DNA from: an uncultured Actinomycetota bacterium
Lineage (GTDB): Bacteria > Actinomycetota > Actinomycetes > Actinomycetales > CAWJMD01
Assembly: GCA_963750285.1 (NCBI GenBank)
Contig: CAVVQA010000010.1
Location: 113,058-177,057, forward strand
DNA length: 64,000 bases
Reading direction: 5' to 3'
Made by a program: the position numbers and the translations under genes. Shown here in pieces: positions 38,174-42,891 of this stretch. How positions within the stretch are numbered: the first letter of the stretch is position 1; each line of letters begins with the position of its first letter. The notes beneath the pieces are model-generated. The model was given only the letters and a program-made list of their open reading frames with translations, had not been told where the DNA came from and made no database searches.

Positions 38174-38434
38174 TCAGGCCAGCGCCGCCTTGACCTGCCC
38201 GAGCGAGGGGTTGGTCAGCGCGCTGCCGTCCGGGAACAGGACCGTGGGGACGGTCTGGTTGCCGCCGTTGACCTGCATCACGAAGTCGGCCGCACCGGGC
38301 TCGTTCTCGATGTTCACCTCGGAGTACGCGATGCCCTCGCGGTCCAGGGCCTGCTTCAGCACGCGGCAGTAGCCGCACCAGGTGGTGCTGAACATCGTCA
38401 CGGTGCCGGCGGACGGCGTCGCGGGTGTCGTCAT
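38174..38434 (-). CDS. mrx1: Mycoredoxin (glutaredoxin-like, CGYC active site)
   Basis: VTMFSTTWCGYCRVLKQALDREGIAYSEVNIE... Confidence 0.85.
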   Translation of the reverse strand: MTTPATPSAGTVTMFSTTWCGYCRVLKQALDREGIAYSEVNIENEPGAADFVMQVNGGNQTVPTVLFPDGSALTNPSLGQVKAALA

Positions 38435-38500
38435 ACCAGGACCCAACCACCCGTCTCGACCGCCCATTCCGTCGGGTGTCGGCGGGCCGGGGCAGGATGG

Positions 38501-40616
38501 GTGCCGATGACGCTCCTGCCCACCACCCCCTCGTCGGCCGACGCCGTCCTCGAGGCGCTCGACCCCGAGCAGCGCGAGGTGGCCACCAGCCTGCGCGGTC
38601 CCCTCTGCGTGCTCGCGGGGGCCGGCACCGGCAAGACCCGCGCCATCACCCACCGCATCGCCTACGGGGTGCACTCGGGCATCTACGTCCCGCAGACCGT
38701 GCTGGCCGTCACCTTCACCGCCCGCGCCGCGGGGGAGATGCGCACCCGGCTGCGCGAGCTCGGCGTCGGCGGCGTGCAGGCGCGCACCTTCCACTCCGCC
38801 GCGCTGCGCCAGCTGCAGTTCTTCTGGCCGCAGGTGGTCGGCGGGGCGCGTGCCGTCGCTGGTCACGCAGAAGGCGCCGCTGGTCGGTGCCGCCGCCTCG
38901 CGGCTGCGGATCCAGGTCGACCGCGCCGCCGTGCGCGACCTCGCCGCCGAGATCGAGTGGGCCAAGGTCTCCATGGTCGAGCCCGACGACTACCCGGCGG
39001 CGGCCGAGCGGGCCGGCCGCAGCGGCGTCGCCGGCATGGCACCCGTCGCCGTGGCGCGGGTGCTGCGCGGCTACGAGGACGTCAAGACCGACCGCGGCGT
39101 GATCGACTTCGAGGACGTCCTGCTGCTCACCGCCGGCGTGCTGGAGGAGCGGCCCGACGTCGCCGCCACCGTGCGCGGGCAGTACCGGCACTTCGTGGTC
39201 GACGAGTACCAGGACGTCTCCGGCCTCCAGCAGCGGCTGCTCGACCTGTGGCTCGGCGACCGCGACGACCTGTGCGTGGTCGGCGACGCCAGCCAGACCA
39301 TCTACTCCTTCGCGGGCGCCGACCCGCAGCACCTGCTCGGCTTCCGCCGGCGCTACCCGCAGGCCGCCCTGGTGCAGCTGGTGCGCGACTACCGCTCCAC
39401 CCCGCAGGTGGTGGGCCTGGCCAACCGGCTGCTCGACCGCGCCCCCGCCTCCGCCCGCACCGCGCGGGTCGAGCTGGTGGCCCAGCGGCCCGCCGGGCCG
39501 GAGCCCGAGCTGCTCGAGCACGCCGACGACGTCGACGAGGCCGAGCAGGTCGCCACCCGCATCCGCGCGCTGGTCGACGGCGGCGTGCCCGCCCGCGAGA
39601 TCGCGGTGCTGTACCGCACCAACGGCCAGTCCGAGCCGCTCGAGCAGGCGCTCGCCGAACAAGGGCGTCGGCTACCTCCTGCGCGGCGGCGAGCGGTTCT
39701 TCCAGCGTCCCGAGGTGCGCGAGGCGGTGCTGCTGCTGCGCGGCGCCGCGCGCGGCGACGACGGCTCGTCCTCCCTCGGCGAGGCCGCCCGCGCCGTCCT
39801 CGGCCGGGGCGGGCTGGTCGCACGAGCCGCCCGCCGGCACCGGCGCGGTGCGCGAGCGCTGGGAGTCGCTGCAGGCGCTGGCCGCGCTCGCCGACGACCT
39901 CGACCGGGCCCGGCCCGGGGTGCGCCTGCCCGACCTGGTGGCCGAGCTCGAGGAGCGGGCCGCCGCCCAGCACGCGCCGGCCGTCGAGGGCGTCACCCTC
40001 GCCTCCCTGCACGCCGCCAAGGGCCTGGAGTGGGACGTCGTCGCGATCGTCGGGCTGTCCGAGGGGCTCGTGCCGATCTCGTTCGCCGCCGACTCGGCCG
40101 ACGCCGTGGAGGAGGAGCGCCGGCTGCTGTACGTCGGCGTCACCCGCGCGCGCGAGCGGCTGCTGCTGTCCTGGTCGCGCTCGCGCACCCCCGGCGGACG
40201 CGGCTCGCGGCGGCCCTCGCGGTTCCTCGACGGCCTGGTGCCGGGCAGCCGGCCGTCAGGCGCCGCCGGCCGCCCGGAGCAGCCGCAAGCGGCGCGCGTC
40301 GTCGCTGCACACCACCTGCCGCGGGTGCGGCGCGGCCCTGTCCACCGCGGTCGAGCGCAAGACCGGGCGCTGCTCGACCTGCCCGCCCGACCACGACGAG
40401 CAGCTGTTCGAGGCGCTGCGCGGGTGGCGGGCCGAGATCGCCAAGGAGCAGAAGGTGCCGGCGTACGTCGTCTTCACCGACGCCACGCTCGAGGCGCTCT
40501 CGTTCGCCAAACCCGTTGACGCACAAGGACTCCTGAAGATCTCCGGGATCGGCCGCACCAAGGTGGAGCGGTACGGCGAGGCGGTCCTCGACGTCGTCGC
40601 CAGAAGTTCTTCGTGA
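38501..40616 (+). CDS. uvrD2: ATP-dependent DNA helicase UvrD2-like (UvrD core plus C-terminal HRDC domain), several frameshifts
   Basis: CVLAGAGTGKTRAITHRIAY, VVDEYQDVS, VVGDASQTIYSFAGA, ASLHAAKGLEWDVV, a Cys4 linker, and the HRDC region (EALRGWRAEIAKEQKVPAYVVFTDATLEAL). Confidence 0.8.
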
Positions 40617-40629
40617 CGTCCTCGTTAAT

Positions 40630-40690
40630 GTCGTTGCCCCGCGCGAGCCGGGCCGTCTAACCTGATCGACGCAGCCCGGAGCGGGTTGTC
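40630..40690 (+). promoter_or_regulatory. Candidate whiB7 promoter with an AT-rich element just upstream of the -35 (cgttaatgtcg; TTGCCC-N18-TAACCT)
   Basis: An AT-rich patch at ~40635-40645 in otherwise GC-rich DNA. WhiB7 proteins bind AT-rich DNA next to their own -35 via the AT-hook. Confidence 0.35.
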
Positions 40691-40750
40691 GCAGCTACCG
40701 GCCGTGCGTGGCACACGGACCGGCGACCGAGGGAGAGGAGGGGACACCTG

Positions 40751-40990
40751 ATGGAGAGCACGAAGTCGATGCAGCTGGTCGCGCTGTCGCGCGCCGGGTA
40801 CCAGGTCCCCTCCGCGGACCTGGGCAAGCGGTGCGTCCAGGGCGATCTGCTCGTGACCAGGGGACAGGTGCGCCCGATCCAGGGTGCCGTCGCCGGTTTC
40901 CCGGTCCGCATCCGCCCCGCCGCCTTCCCGATCCCCGCCACCCAGCTCACGGGCTCCGTCCCGCCTGGAGGCCACCGGTTCGAGACGTAG
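40751..40990 (+). CDS. Upstream ORF (79 codons) in the whiB7 5' leader; candidate attenuator uORF
   Basis: A strong RBS gggagaggagggg lies 7 nt before the ATG. It sits in the ~580-nt leader between the uvrD2 stop and the whiB7 start. Confidence 0.4.
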   Translation: MESTKSMQLVALSRAGYQVPSADLGKRCVQGDLLVTRGQVRPIQGAVAGFPVRIRPAAFPIPATQLTGSVPPGGHRFET

Positions 40991-41194
40991 GTCGACCCCG
41001 AGTCGACCGAGGTCGACCCACCGGAGCCACCAGGCCGCGGATCCCCGAGAGGGATACCGCGGCCTTTCTCGTCCCCCACGAGGCGCTCCGGCACAGGAGC
41101 GCTGCACCGGCCCAGAACGGGCCAGCACGCAACGTCTGACCGACGACCCGCTCCAGGCCACCACCCGTGGCCCGACCTCCAGGAGGTGCCCGCG

Positions 41195-41632
41195 ATGCAG
41201 CTCGCGGCACTGCTCGACCGGCTCCACGACTCGCTCGACGAGCTCGAGCCGGACCACCAGGTGGCCACCTCGGCCTCCGCGACCCCGTGCCAGCAGGGCG
41301 ACGGCGAGCTCTGGTTCGCCGACGCCCCGAAGGACGTCGAGGCGGCCAAGGCTCTCTGCGAGACCTGCCCGGCCGTCACCGCGTGCCTCGCCGGCGCCCT
41401 CGAGCGGCGTGAGCCGTGGGGCGTCTGGGGCGGTCAGCTCTTCGAGAACGGCGTCGTGGTCGCGCGCAAGCGGCCCCGGGGCCGGCCCCGCAAGGACGAC
41501 CCGCGCTACACCGAGCCGGCCTCGGCCGCCCGGTCGGCGCACGACGCCGCCCTGCAGCTCGTGCAGGCCGCCGGGTTCGAGATCTCGCCGGTCCCGCGGC
41601 AGCGGGACTCCGGCGACGAGCTCGTCGCCTGA
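41195..41632 (+). CDS. whiB7: WhiB-family regulator with C-terminal AT-hook (WhiB7-like)
   Basis: Four Cys (C..QGDGELWFAD, CETCPAVTAC), GVWGG, and the AT-hook RGRPRK. An RBS aggagg precedes the ATG. Confidence 0.8.
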   Translation: MQLAALLDRLHDSLDELEPDHQVATSASATPCQQGDGELWFADAPKDVEAAKALCETCPAVTACLAGALERREPWGVWGGQLFENGVVVARKRPRGRPRKDDPRYTEPASAARSAHDAALQLVQAAGFEISPVPRQRDSGDELVA

Positions 41633-41690
41633 CCGGCTGACCGCCTGTGACCACCGCATCCGTGAACGCCTCACCGACAGGAGCACCACC

Positions 41691-41864
41691 GTGTACAGCG
41701 AGCACCAGCTGGCCCTCGCGCGACAGCGCGAGGACCAGCGATCCGCGGAGCAGCACCGCCTCGTGCTGGCGCTGCTCACCCAGCGCCGGGCGCGCCGGCT
41801 CGAGCGTCGCGCCGACCAGGCGCTGGCCCGGGCCGGCCGTGCCGCCCGGCTGGTGGCCGTCTGA
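41691..41864 (+). CDS. Small basic coiled-coil protein (hypothetical)
   Basis: RBS aggag then a GTG start. VYSEHQLALARQREDQRSAEQHRLVLALLTQRRARRLERRADQALARAGRAARLVAV. Confidence 0.3.
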   Translation: MYSEHQLALARQREDQRSAEQHRLVLALLTQRRARRLERRADQALARAGRAARLVAV

Positions 41865-41961
41865 CCGCCACCACCCCCACAGCCAGACCCGTCCGAGACT
41901 CTCGGGCGGGTCTGGCTGCTTTCCAGGACGGGCGCCGTCGGCCCGGTCTAGGCTCGCGGCC

Positions 41962-42129
41962 GTGCCCGACGTGGTGTGCCAGCGGTGCGGCACGCGCTCG
42001 CCCTCCGAACCGCCGCCCCTGGGGTGGTCGCCCGGGATCGAGCGCGGACGCACGAGGTGGGTCTGCGAGCAGTGCGCTCGCGAGAACATGCGCAGCATCG
42101 AGGGCAAGCTCGACGAGGAGTGGTGGTGA
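41962..42129 (+). CDS. Small zinc-ribbon protein (two CxxC pairs)
   Basis: VPDVVCQRCGTRS...WVCEQCARENMRSIEGKLDEEWW. Confidence 0.45.
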   Translation: MPDVVCQRCGTRSPSEPPPLGWSPGIERGRTRWVCEQCARENMRSIEGKLDEEWW

Positions 42130-42183
42130 GCGCGGCTCTGCGCCCACCCGGACGGACCCAGACGATCTCGAGGGAGACCCGCG

Positions 42184-42891
42184 TTGCGTAGCCAGCTGTT
42201 CGACGCCCAGCACACCGCCCCCCTGACCTCCCAGGAGCGCTGGGCCACCCAGAGCTCGAAGATGCTCCGCGTGGGCCTCGGACCGGACGTGCTCGCCGCC
42301 AAGGGCGCGATGGTCGCCTACACCGGCCAGCTCACCTTCGCGCACGAGGGCGCGGGCTCGATGGGCCGCCTGGTGCGCCGGATGATCAGCTCCGACGACG
42401 CACCGCTGATGCGGGTCGCGGGCCAGGGCCTGTGCTACTTCGCCCGGCTGGCCGAGGACATCTTCATGATCGAGCTCGAGGGCGACTCGATCAGCATCGG
42501 CGGGTCGAACCTGCTCGCCTTCGACGCCTCGCTCAACTGGGACATCAAGCGGGTGCAGGGCATCGGGGCGATGGCCTCGGCCGGTCTGTTCAACACCGTG
42601 ATCGAGGGCCGCGGCACCGTGGCGATCACCTCCGACGGCCCCCCGATGCTGATGGACTGCTCGCAGCAGCCGGTCTTCGTCGACCCGCAGGCGATCCTCG
42701 GCTGGTCGGCGAACCTGGTCCCCGGCGTGGTCCGCTCCGCCGGGCTCGGGGCGCTGATCGGCCGCGGCTCGGGCGAGGCGTTCCAGCTGGCGTTCCACGG
42801 TCCCGGCTTCGCGATCGTCCAGCCCAGCGAGGGCGCGCCCGCCCCGGCGGGCGGCGGCGGTGGTGGCGGCATCGGCGCCCTGTTCGGCTGA
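42184..42891 (+). CDS. AIM24-family (DUF124) protein
   Basis: TTG start, 235 aa, with a Gly-rich C-terminus. The pattern is typical of the AIM24 family. Confidence 0.65.
   Translation: MRSQLFDAQHTAPLTSQERWATQSSKMLRVGLGPDVLAAKGAMVAYTGQLTFAHEGAGSMGRLVRRMISSDDAPLMRVAGQGLCYFARLAEDIFMIELEGDSISIGGSNLLAFDASLNWDIKRVQGIGAMASAGLFNTVIEGRGTVAITSDGPPMLMDCSQQPVFVDPQAILGWSANLVPGVVRSAGLGALIGRGSGEAFQLAFHGPGFAIVQPSEGAPAPAGGGGGGGIGALFG

Follow-up and report, generated by a model that had tools for sequence, protein, structure and literature searches.

The whiB7/wblC genes belong to a published regulatory system in which a promoter with an AT-rich box is activated by the gene's own product, and a translated leader peptide controls an attenuator placed before the coding sequence (PMC10274678, PMC4128351; reviewed in PMC11550727). 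The EPW motif and the AT-hook of the protein are experimentally defined determinants of WhiB7, responsible for the binding of sigma-A and for the recognition of the AT-rich promoter box, respectively (PMC3905903). In Streptomyces coelicolor, the WblC motif obtained from 183–189 promoters is given as GAAAWY located 3 bp 5' of the −35 element (TKGMNN), followed by a spacer of 16–19 nucleotides (nt) and a −10 element of the form TANNNT (PMC7157823). An alanine-enriched upstream open reading frame (uORF) is reported to be universal for whiB7 in mycobacteria (PMC10274678), and the uORF of Mycobacterium smegmatis is reported to encode 83 amino acids (aa), 24% of which are alanine. The present analysis deals with a locus of this kind in a 64,000-nt stretch of DNA from an uncultured Actinomycetota bacterium (contig CAVVQA010000010.1, positions 113,058 to 177,057), which is hereafter called the window and in which all coordinates are given. 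The locus is very probably a whiB7 (wblC) orthologue with an autoregulated AT-box promoter and a leader-peptide attenuator, that is, an instance of the published whiB7/wblC system.

The leaders used for comparison were collected in two ways. A scan of a genome collection with the single protein returned five loci, among which a usable leader was present only in L001, a metagenome-assembled genome whose DNA is about 95% identical; further leaders of the clade (L006, L007, L009, L011/L012, L013 and L014) were obtained by exact-protein look-up. Leaders of other lineages were taken from a metagenome-assembled genome of the Mycobacteriales (L015), Quadrisphaera (L016), a Knoellia-like contig (L017), a contig of the M. 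tuberculosis-complex type whose WhiB7 matches the M. tuberculosis query with 100% identity (L018), and a contig encoding a WhiB7 named for Mycolicibacterium litorale (L019). In all the fetched loci, uvrD2 and whiB7 are present, and so are, in front of whiB7, a −35 element of the TTG type with an AT-rich box at a distance of 3 bp, a −10 element of the form TANNNT, a uORF, and a GC-rich hairpin with U residues after it. The order uvrD2 - uORF - whiB7 is found in L015, L016, L017, L018 and L019 as well. The elements in the window are as follows.

40623–40633, plus strand: AT-rich box cgttaatgtcg with the core TTAAT at 40625–40629, 3–4 bp 5' of the −35 element; predicted docking site of the WhiB7 AT-hook.
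40634–40639, plus strand: −35 hexamer TTGCCC; CGTTGCCC is unchanged in nine clade sequences, and the hexamer fits the TKGMNN of WblC promoters.
40658–40663, plus strand: −10 hexamer TAACCT after an 18-nt spacer; TA(A/G)CCT across the clade, and the same TAACCT in L018.
40731–40743, plus strand: Shine-Dalgarno sequence of the uORF, GGGAGAGGAGGGG, 7 nt 5' of its ATG; kept in all clade loci.
40751–40990, plus strand: uORF of 79 codons, from ATG to TAG.
40946–41049, plus strand: predicted antiterminator, a long hairpin spanning the uORF stop, whose basal helix joins uORF codons 66–73 (40946–40968) to the 5' arm of the terminator (41030–41049).
40991–41017, plus strand: three GTCGAC palindromes, at 40991, 41002 and 41012; kept in the clade and absent from L015–L019.
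41033–41072, plus strand: predicted hairpin of an intrinsic terminator (attenuator), GGCCGCGGAUCCC-CGAGA-GGGAUACCGCGGCC (41033–41064), followed by UUUCUCGU.
41181–41186, plus strand: Shine-Dalgarno sequence of whiB7, AGGAGG, 8 nt 5' of the ATG at 41195; invariant in nine sequences.
41195–41632, plus strand: whiB7 coding sequence, 145 aa, assigned by Pfam and PDB matches and by its substitution pattern.

Judged by its sequence, the product of 41195–41632 is a WhiB7 orthologue. Its start codon is the ATG at 41195, which is unchanged together with the next codons across nine relatives, and the stop is at 41632. The GTG at 41186 given as the start in a mechanical list of open reading frames was rejected, because this triplet overlaps the Shine-Dalgarno sequence at 41181–41186 and the ATG is invariant. 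The protein matches the Pfam family Whib (PF02467) with an E value of 8.7e-14, and the NCBIfam search for it returned nothing. The translation contains the iron-sulfur cluster cysteines of the Wbl fold in the arrangement C-Xn-C-X2-C-X5-C (Cys32, Cys55, Cys58 and Cys64), and the EPW motif at residues 73–75, which is the contact to sigma region 4, is followed by GVWGG at residues 76–80; both are identical in the alignment with WhiB7 of M. tuberculosis. The AT-hook KRPRGRPRK occupies residues 92–100 (41468–41494) with RGRP as its core, and the stretch KRPRGRPRKD at residues 92–101 shows no difference from the M. tuberculosis protein. Among all PDB chains, the top match is M. tuberculosis WhiB7 (7KIF/7KIM/7KUF) with an E value of 5.1e-29, while the other Wbl classes follow at 1.7e-7 (WhiB3), 3e-6 (WhiB1), 2e-5 (WhiB) and 5e-5 (WhiB4). 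The ratio of nonsynonymous to synonymous substitution rates (dN/dS) of whiB7 against its relatives is 0.22–0.48, with a synonymous divergence of 0.25–0.47.

Beyond the AT-hook, the protein carries a C-terminal extension of 44 aa (41498–41629, plus strand), DPRYTEPASAARSAHDAALQLVQAAGFEISPVPRQRDSGDELVA, which is kept across the clade. This tail is absent from WhiB7 of M. tuberculosis, a protein of 92 aa, and from the Quadrisphaera and Knoellia-type proteins.

The promoter reads TTAATG-TCG-TTGCCC-N18-TAACCT and agrees with the grammar of WhiB7/WblC promoters; the AT-rich box starts six bases after the end of uvrD2 (40616). Transcription would start near 40670, according to the rule of 7–8 nt after the −10 element. 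When both strands of the window (73.6% guanine plus cytosine, GC) were scanned for a 6-mer with at least 5 of 6 A/T positions located no more than 12 nt upstream of TTGNNN-N16-19-TANNNT, exactly one site was found, which is the whiB7 promoter, and the mean number expected by chance was 0.03 per window in 100 first-order Markov simulations. An AT-rich 5–6-mer stands at an equal offset in all the relatives, among them L018 of the M. tuberculosis type, whose promoter reads GAAAAT-CGG-TTGTGG-N18-TAACCT. The box in the window agrees with the S. coelicolor GAAAWY consensus at just 3–4 of the 6 positions. A scan with consensus promoters returned nothing here, which was judged to be a limit of the scan and not an absence, as the −35 and −10 hexamers of whiB7 deviate from the E. 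coli consensus.

These results bear on an earlier note on this DNA, which was made from the letters alone. Its assignment of 41195–41632 to a WhiB protein with a C-terminal AT-hook is borne out by the motifs, the Pfam match and the PDB ranking, and the position next to uvrD2, which it had compared with mycobacteria, recurs in five other lineages. The AT-rich cgttaatgtcg beside TTGCCC-N18-TAACCT is present where the note had placed it, and is conserved as well as unique in the window. The leader of about 580 nt requires a correction: 578 nt is the intergenic distance, and the predicted transcribed leader, counted from a start near 40670, is about 525 nt. The note had also recognized the autoregulatory architecture of WhiB7, which stands insofar as all the sequence features agree, and had proposed a search for AT-rich-plus-promoter motifs of regulon genes. 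Apart from the promoter of whiB7 itself, no second promoter of the WhiB7 type and thus no regulon promoter was found on either strand of the 64-kb window; an antibiotic-induced resistance regulon under WhiB7, as the note had suggested, is a candidate.

The uORF is open in all eight clade loci for which DNA was available, with 73, 74, 77, 78, 79 (two loci), 80 and 88 codons; seven different lengths are thus all kept in frame. The start, the Shine-Dalgarno sequence, the frame and the TAG abutting GTCGAC are preserved in the same eight loci, and a uORF at the equivalent position, with 40–89 codons and a Shine-Dalgarno sequence of the GGAGG type, is present in five of the five loci from other lineages, including the M. 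tuberculosis-type locus. A length of 79 codons alone is not significant in DNA so rich in GC, and is unremarkable beside the 83 aa reported for M. smegmatis. The GC fraction by codon position is 0.71/0.54/0.92, which is of the coding type.

An alignment of 13 uORF peptides (A1), consisting of 11 database homologues together with L006 and L007, gave identities of 59–100% for the database homologues, 47% for L006 and 39% for L007. The dN/dS of the uORF against its relatives is 1.2–2.6 (for L001 it is not computable, since the sequences are nearly identical and show no synonymous differences), and the synonymous divergence of 0.11–0.42 lies below that of whiB7. This combination indicates that the frame and the nucleotides are under constraint, and not the peptide. 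The uORF is evidently kept open and translated, the peptide itself appears free of purifying selection, and the conservation of nucleotides comes in blocks; the pattern fits a leader peptide that carries a ribosome and argues against an independent small protein.

In two such blocks, 40829–40849 (RCVQGDL) and 40856–40876 (TRGQVRP) on the plus strand, synonymous sites have hardly changed across eight loci, although the whiB7 genes of these loci differ at 25–47% of such sites; this indicates that the selection acts on the nucleotides. A convincing pairing partner was not found for these frozen blocks, and the folds of single sequences and of the alignment disagree about one. A nascent-peptide sensor working through RCVQGDL/GQVRP was considered and is disfavored by the near absence of synonymous change in these codons. 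A timing device based on a polyproline (PPG) pause where the uORF ends was likewise rejected as unsupported: relatives have W, Q or L in place of the first proline, yet the underlying CCUGGAGG does not vary, which places the conservation at the RNA level. In the RNAalifold consensus, the core GGAGGGG of the uORF Shine-Dalgarno sequence (40737–40743) pairs with CCCCUCC at 40807–40813, within uORF codons 19–21. Both strands are nearly invariant, with L007 departing, so that the pairing has no covariation evidence; it could represent a self-limitation of the initiation on the uORF.

Between the uORF and whiB7, two hairpins are predicted that exclude each other. The terminator hairpin has an energy of −25.5 kcal/mol, and the 78-nt segment 41003–41080 enclosing it gives a folding z-score of −4.05. 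Across 13 leaders, 89.9% of the alignment cells of the terminator are paired, compared with 35–55% when the partner is slid, and three of its pairs are changed on both sides, including a swap from G:C to A:U that marks the mycobacterial GGCCACGGA...UCCGUGGCC. For the antiterminator, the transcript was folded with its end at the terminator loop, so as to represent it ahead of the synthesis of the 3' arm. The antiterminator topology is predicted in 13 of the 13 leaders, where the 5' arm of the terminator pairs, at least partly, with the last 6–13 codons of the uORF; in the window, the uORF 3' segment 40961–40968 within the basal helix is CCGCCUGG. Counted from the end of the stop codon, the partners are located mainly 18–39 nt upstream, with some elsewhere in L006, L018 and L019. 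In nine of ten loci, the duplex energy of the arm with the last 15 sense codons is beaten by only 0–7 of 300 dinucleotide shuffles, and 87.5% of the antiterminator cells are paired, compared with 26–44% with a slid partner.

The predicted balance between the two hairpins depends on the position of a ribosome. When 40900–41072 is folded with no ribosome, the minimum-energy structure is the antiterminator, at −74.1 kcal/mol. With a 33-nt footprint centered on codon 72 masked, which covers codons 67–77, the complete terminator is formed; with a 30-nt footprint masked so that the stop codon is in the A site, the complete terminator is formed together with the pairing of GUCGAC copies 2 and 3. At the tip of the predicted antiterminator, GTCGAC copy 1 pairs with copy 2, and with a ribosome on the stop codon copy 2 is predicted to pair with copy 3, so that the GUCGAC copies may act as a toggle. 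No Rfam 15 family was found at E values up to 1 across 40000–42500, and no model matched the whiB7 leader.

The interval from the terminator to whiB7 contains two further plus-strand hairpins. One at 41082–41103, GGCGCUCC-GGCACA-GGAGCGCU, is conserved, and another at 41156–41172, GGCCAC-CACCC-GUGGCC, is invariant in nine sequences.

The attenuator of the earlier note consisted of a 79-codon uORF with a strong Shine-Dalgarno sequence, which is present as described, and of terminator and antiterminator alternatives between the uORF and whiB7, which it had left to structure prediction; both are now predicted, with the same topology in 13 leaders. The note had made its case depend on the uORF being conserved in related genomes, and it is conserved. 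At the level of sequence and predicted folds, the uORF, the terminator and an antiterminator that excludes it are thus all found.

From these elements, the following course of events can be proposed. The promoter would be of the primary-sigma type, and WhiB7 would dock on the AT-rich box by its RGRP AT-hook; the iron-sulfur domain of the docked protein, with its EPW motif, would at the same time grip sigma region 4, resulting in positive autoregulation. A transcript begun at about 40670 would enter the 79-codon uORF, whose ribosome-binding site is strong. In the OFF state, a ribosome following close behind the polymerase would sit on the last 15 or so codons or on the stop, covering the 5' strand of the long hairpin at 40946–40997; the freed 41033–41046 would pair with 41051–41064 to form the terminator, and transcription would stop at the U-tract near 41072. 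In the ON state, ribosomes stalled earlier in the uORF, by ribosome-targeting drugs or by a lack of charged tRNA, would leave the 3' end of the uORF naked. This naked end would pair with 41030–41049, which would block the terminator and allow the polymerase to continue into whiB7, and the ON state would then be amplified through the autoactivation by WhiB7.

Several observations weigh against this proposal. The U-tract of the terminator, UUUCUCGU, is short, interrupted and weak, with UUCCUCGU in L011, and a consensus terminator scan missed 41033–41072, which was judged to be a limit of the scan because the bulged stem breaks its perfect-repeat rule. The complementarity of the duplex between the arm and the uORF end is not significant in L016, L018 and L019. 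The covariation support of the terminator is modest, with compensatory changes only in the cross-order alignment; within the clade, the helices are retained, but almost all the paired columns are invariant, the counts for both hairpins do not rise above those of shuffles, and those of the antiterminator are not above its controls. The minimum-energy state varies with the amount of flanking sequence that is folded. The uORF contains 10.1% alanine (8–16% in the clade) against a background of 14.5% in the neighboring genes, so that the alanine enrichment of mycobacteria is not found in the clade, although this enrichment is a mycobacterial attribute and does not define the mechanism; the fraction is 19–27% in L015, L017, L018 and L019, with 22–27% in L018 and L019. 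The window sequence also has probable indel errors near whiB7, in uvrD2.

It is very unlikely that the 79-codon reading frame is an ordinary small-protein gene, placed before whiB7 by operon organization and not for sensing. Such a gene would account for the annotation of the uORF by gene callers in many assemblies and for its 11 database homologues, for the residues that are invariant in the peptide (RC..L, Q.RP and PGG), and for a GC pattern at the third codon position that resembles coding DNA. The elevated dN/dS of the uORF and its low synonymous divergence relative to whiB7 speak against a conserved product, and the peptide matches no Pfam or NCBIfam family. Moreover, the peptide sequence in other lineages is unrelated, yet the position, the stop-straddling hairpin and the terminator are the same. 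A coincidence of promoter and hairpin features in GC-rich intergenic DNA, with whiB7 transcribed by read-through from uvrD2, is extremely improbable. Read-through from uvrD2 into the leader is itself probable, since just 6 nt separate the uvrD2 stop (40614–40616) from the AT-rich box and the scan detected no terminator in this interval. Against the coincidence stand the chance expectation given above for the promoter and the fact that the promoter and leader elements are invariant in relatives whose flanks have diverged and recur in other orders.

The weakness of the U-tract and the empty consensus scan can also be read as signs that premature termination in the leader depends mainly on Rho or is assisted by another factor, as polarity of an untranslated uORF, or that the control is translational, and that the hairpin is not an intrinsic terminator. 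Beyond the terminator, the leader continues with about 120 nt that are conserved and include more hairpins, which points in the same direction. Nevertheless, this explanation is improbable. Polarity of the Rho type has the opposite sign, as a stall of translation would raise termination, and the hairpin with its U-run is kept all the way from the clade to M. tuberculosis and shows compensatory changes. In mycobacteria, the corresponding stem-loop is where transcripts end (PMC4128351). As for translational control, a hairpin sequestering the Shine-Dalgarno sequence and the start of whiB7, suggested by RNAalifold, was rejected, because it is no stabler than dinucleotide shuffles in ten loci (z-scores of −0.4 to +0.6). 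The ribosome-controlled attenuator with an autoregulated promoter is preferred.

A separate question is whether the whiB7 attenuator of this uncultured clade is a functional variant and not a plain copy of the known system, which seems doubtful. If it is a variant, a uORF with no alanine bias would report general translation stress and not the supply of alanine. The GUCGAC copies could then form a three-state toggle, in which the antiterminator uses copies 1 and 2, and the pairing of copy 2 with copy 3 serves as an anti-antiterminator after the ribosome has reached the stop. The frozen blocks of the uORF could be a signal for polymerase pausing or coupling, or a factor binding site, and the 44-aa tail of WhiB7 together with a 57-aa basic protein encoded downstream could add a partner beyond the mycobacterial system. 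The mechanism as such is already known, and the additions are small clade-specific details.

The remaining features in and around the leader are as follows.

40671–40689, plus strand: GCAGCCCG-GAG-CGGGUUGU, a stem-loop predicted for the transcript's 5' end; an RNAalifold helix at columns 120–138, in which a single sequence has one pair changed on both sides.
38501–40616, plus strand: uvrD2-like helicase gene with the Pfam domains UvrD-helicase, UvrD_C and HRDC; stop codon at 40614–40616.
41691–41864, plus strand: small open reading frame of 57 aa rich in arginine, alanine and glutamine, 58 nt past whiB7, with its own GGAG site and a GC fraction of 0.93/0.51/0.93 by codon position.

The stem-loop at 40671–40689 may possibly play a role in transcript stability. 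The small open reading frame has homologues in L001, L002, L006, L007, L009 and L011, and positional equivalents of 43–74 aa occur in L015–L017; it is absent from both mycobacterial loci, and no Pfam family was found for it. The consensus scan detected no terminator-like site between whiB7 and this reading frame, so that the two are probably co-transcribed. By tblastn, uvrD2 in the window is split over the frames 1/2/1/2, while the L001 copy is intact in a single frame; the breaks correspond to four single-base insertions relative to L001, at 38849/50, 39655/56, 39802/03 and 40262/63. They represent either a pseudogene of a normally essential gene or indel errors of the assembly. Divergently upstream of uvrD2, a glutaredoxin-like gene is located at about 38174–38450 on the minus strand (Pfam PF00462, E value 8.8e-14), and the same neighbor is found in L007; we take it to be the counterpart of Rv3198A, which is beside uvrD2 in M. 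tuberculosis.

The locus raises no new question by itself. It shows a WhiB7 control module, consisting of the AT-box promoter, a long uORF, a hairpin straddling its stop and the terminator GGCC(G/A)CGGA...CCG(C/U)GGCC, that is preserved almost base for base between M. tuberculosis and an uncultured soil actinomycete. For annotation, the uORF together with the terminator is a reliable signature of a whiB7 leader, while the alanine enrichment of the uORF fails as a general property in the clade of the window.

Among the known systems, mycobacterial whiB7 (Rv3197A of M. tuberculosis and MSMEG_1953 of M. smegmatis) has the same order of uvrD2, leader and whiB7. Like the window locus, the M. tuberculosis-type L018 has a TAACCT, an 18-nt spacer and, 3 bp away from the −35 element, an AT-rich box; the mycobacterial leader shares the GGAGG-type Shine-Dalgarno sequence of the uORF, the stop-straddling hairpin and the terminator GGCC(A/G)CGGA...CCG(U/C)GGCC, and the core and AT-hook of the mycobacterial protein are nearly identical to those of the window protein. 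The differences are as follows. The leader is about 525 nt in the window and about 350 nt as reported for mycobacteria (PMC4128351), and the uORF has 79 codons, near the 83 of M. smegmatis, compared with 40 in L018. Alanine amounts to 10% of the uORF in the window, 22–27% in L018 and L019, and a reported 24% in M. smegmatis. Unlike mycobacteria, the clade of the window has three GUCGAC copies past the uORF stop and a 44-aa tail on WhiB7, and whiB7 is followed by the small open reading frame, where mycobacteria have a convergent ABC1 gene.

The wblC gene of S. coelicolor (SCO5190; Lee, Lee & Roe 2022, Mol Microbiol 117:179) follows the same logic, in which translation of the uORF leads to a Rho-independent terminator and stalling leads to an antiterminator. 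The promoter grammar of S. coelicolor WblC is shared as well, with TTAAT(G) as the box in the window instead of GAAAWY; the S. coelicolor leader was compared by its description. In the trp, leu and his attenuators of E. coli, the position of the ribosome likewise picks between the antiterminator and the terminator, and a ribosome at the end of the leader reading frame masks the upstream strand. However, the uORF of the window exceeds theirs in length by a factor of five and lacks any run of regulatory codons, the whiB7 leader reports general translation stress and not the supply of one amino acid, and its output is a transcription factor that amplifies its own promoter. In the erm leaders and the ARE-ABCF genes (vmlR, msrD and lmo0919), ribosomes stalled by drugs in the uORF likewise switch a terminator to an antiterminator. 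Their uORFs have 3–20 codons and are often specific for the peptide and the drug, whereas the uORF of whiB7 is long, and its peptide evolves freely with a dN/dS above 1.

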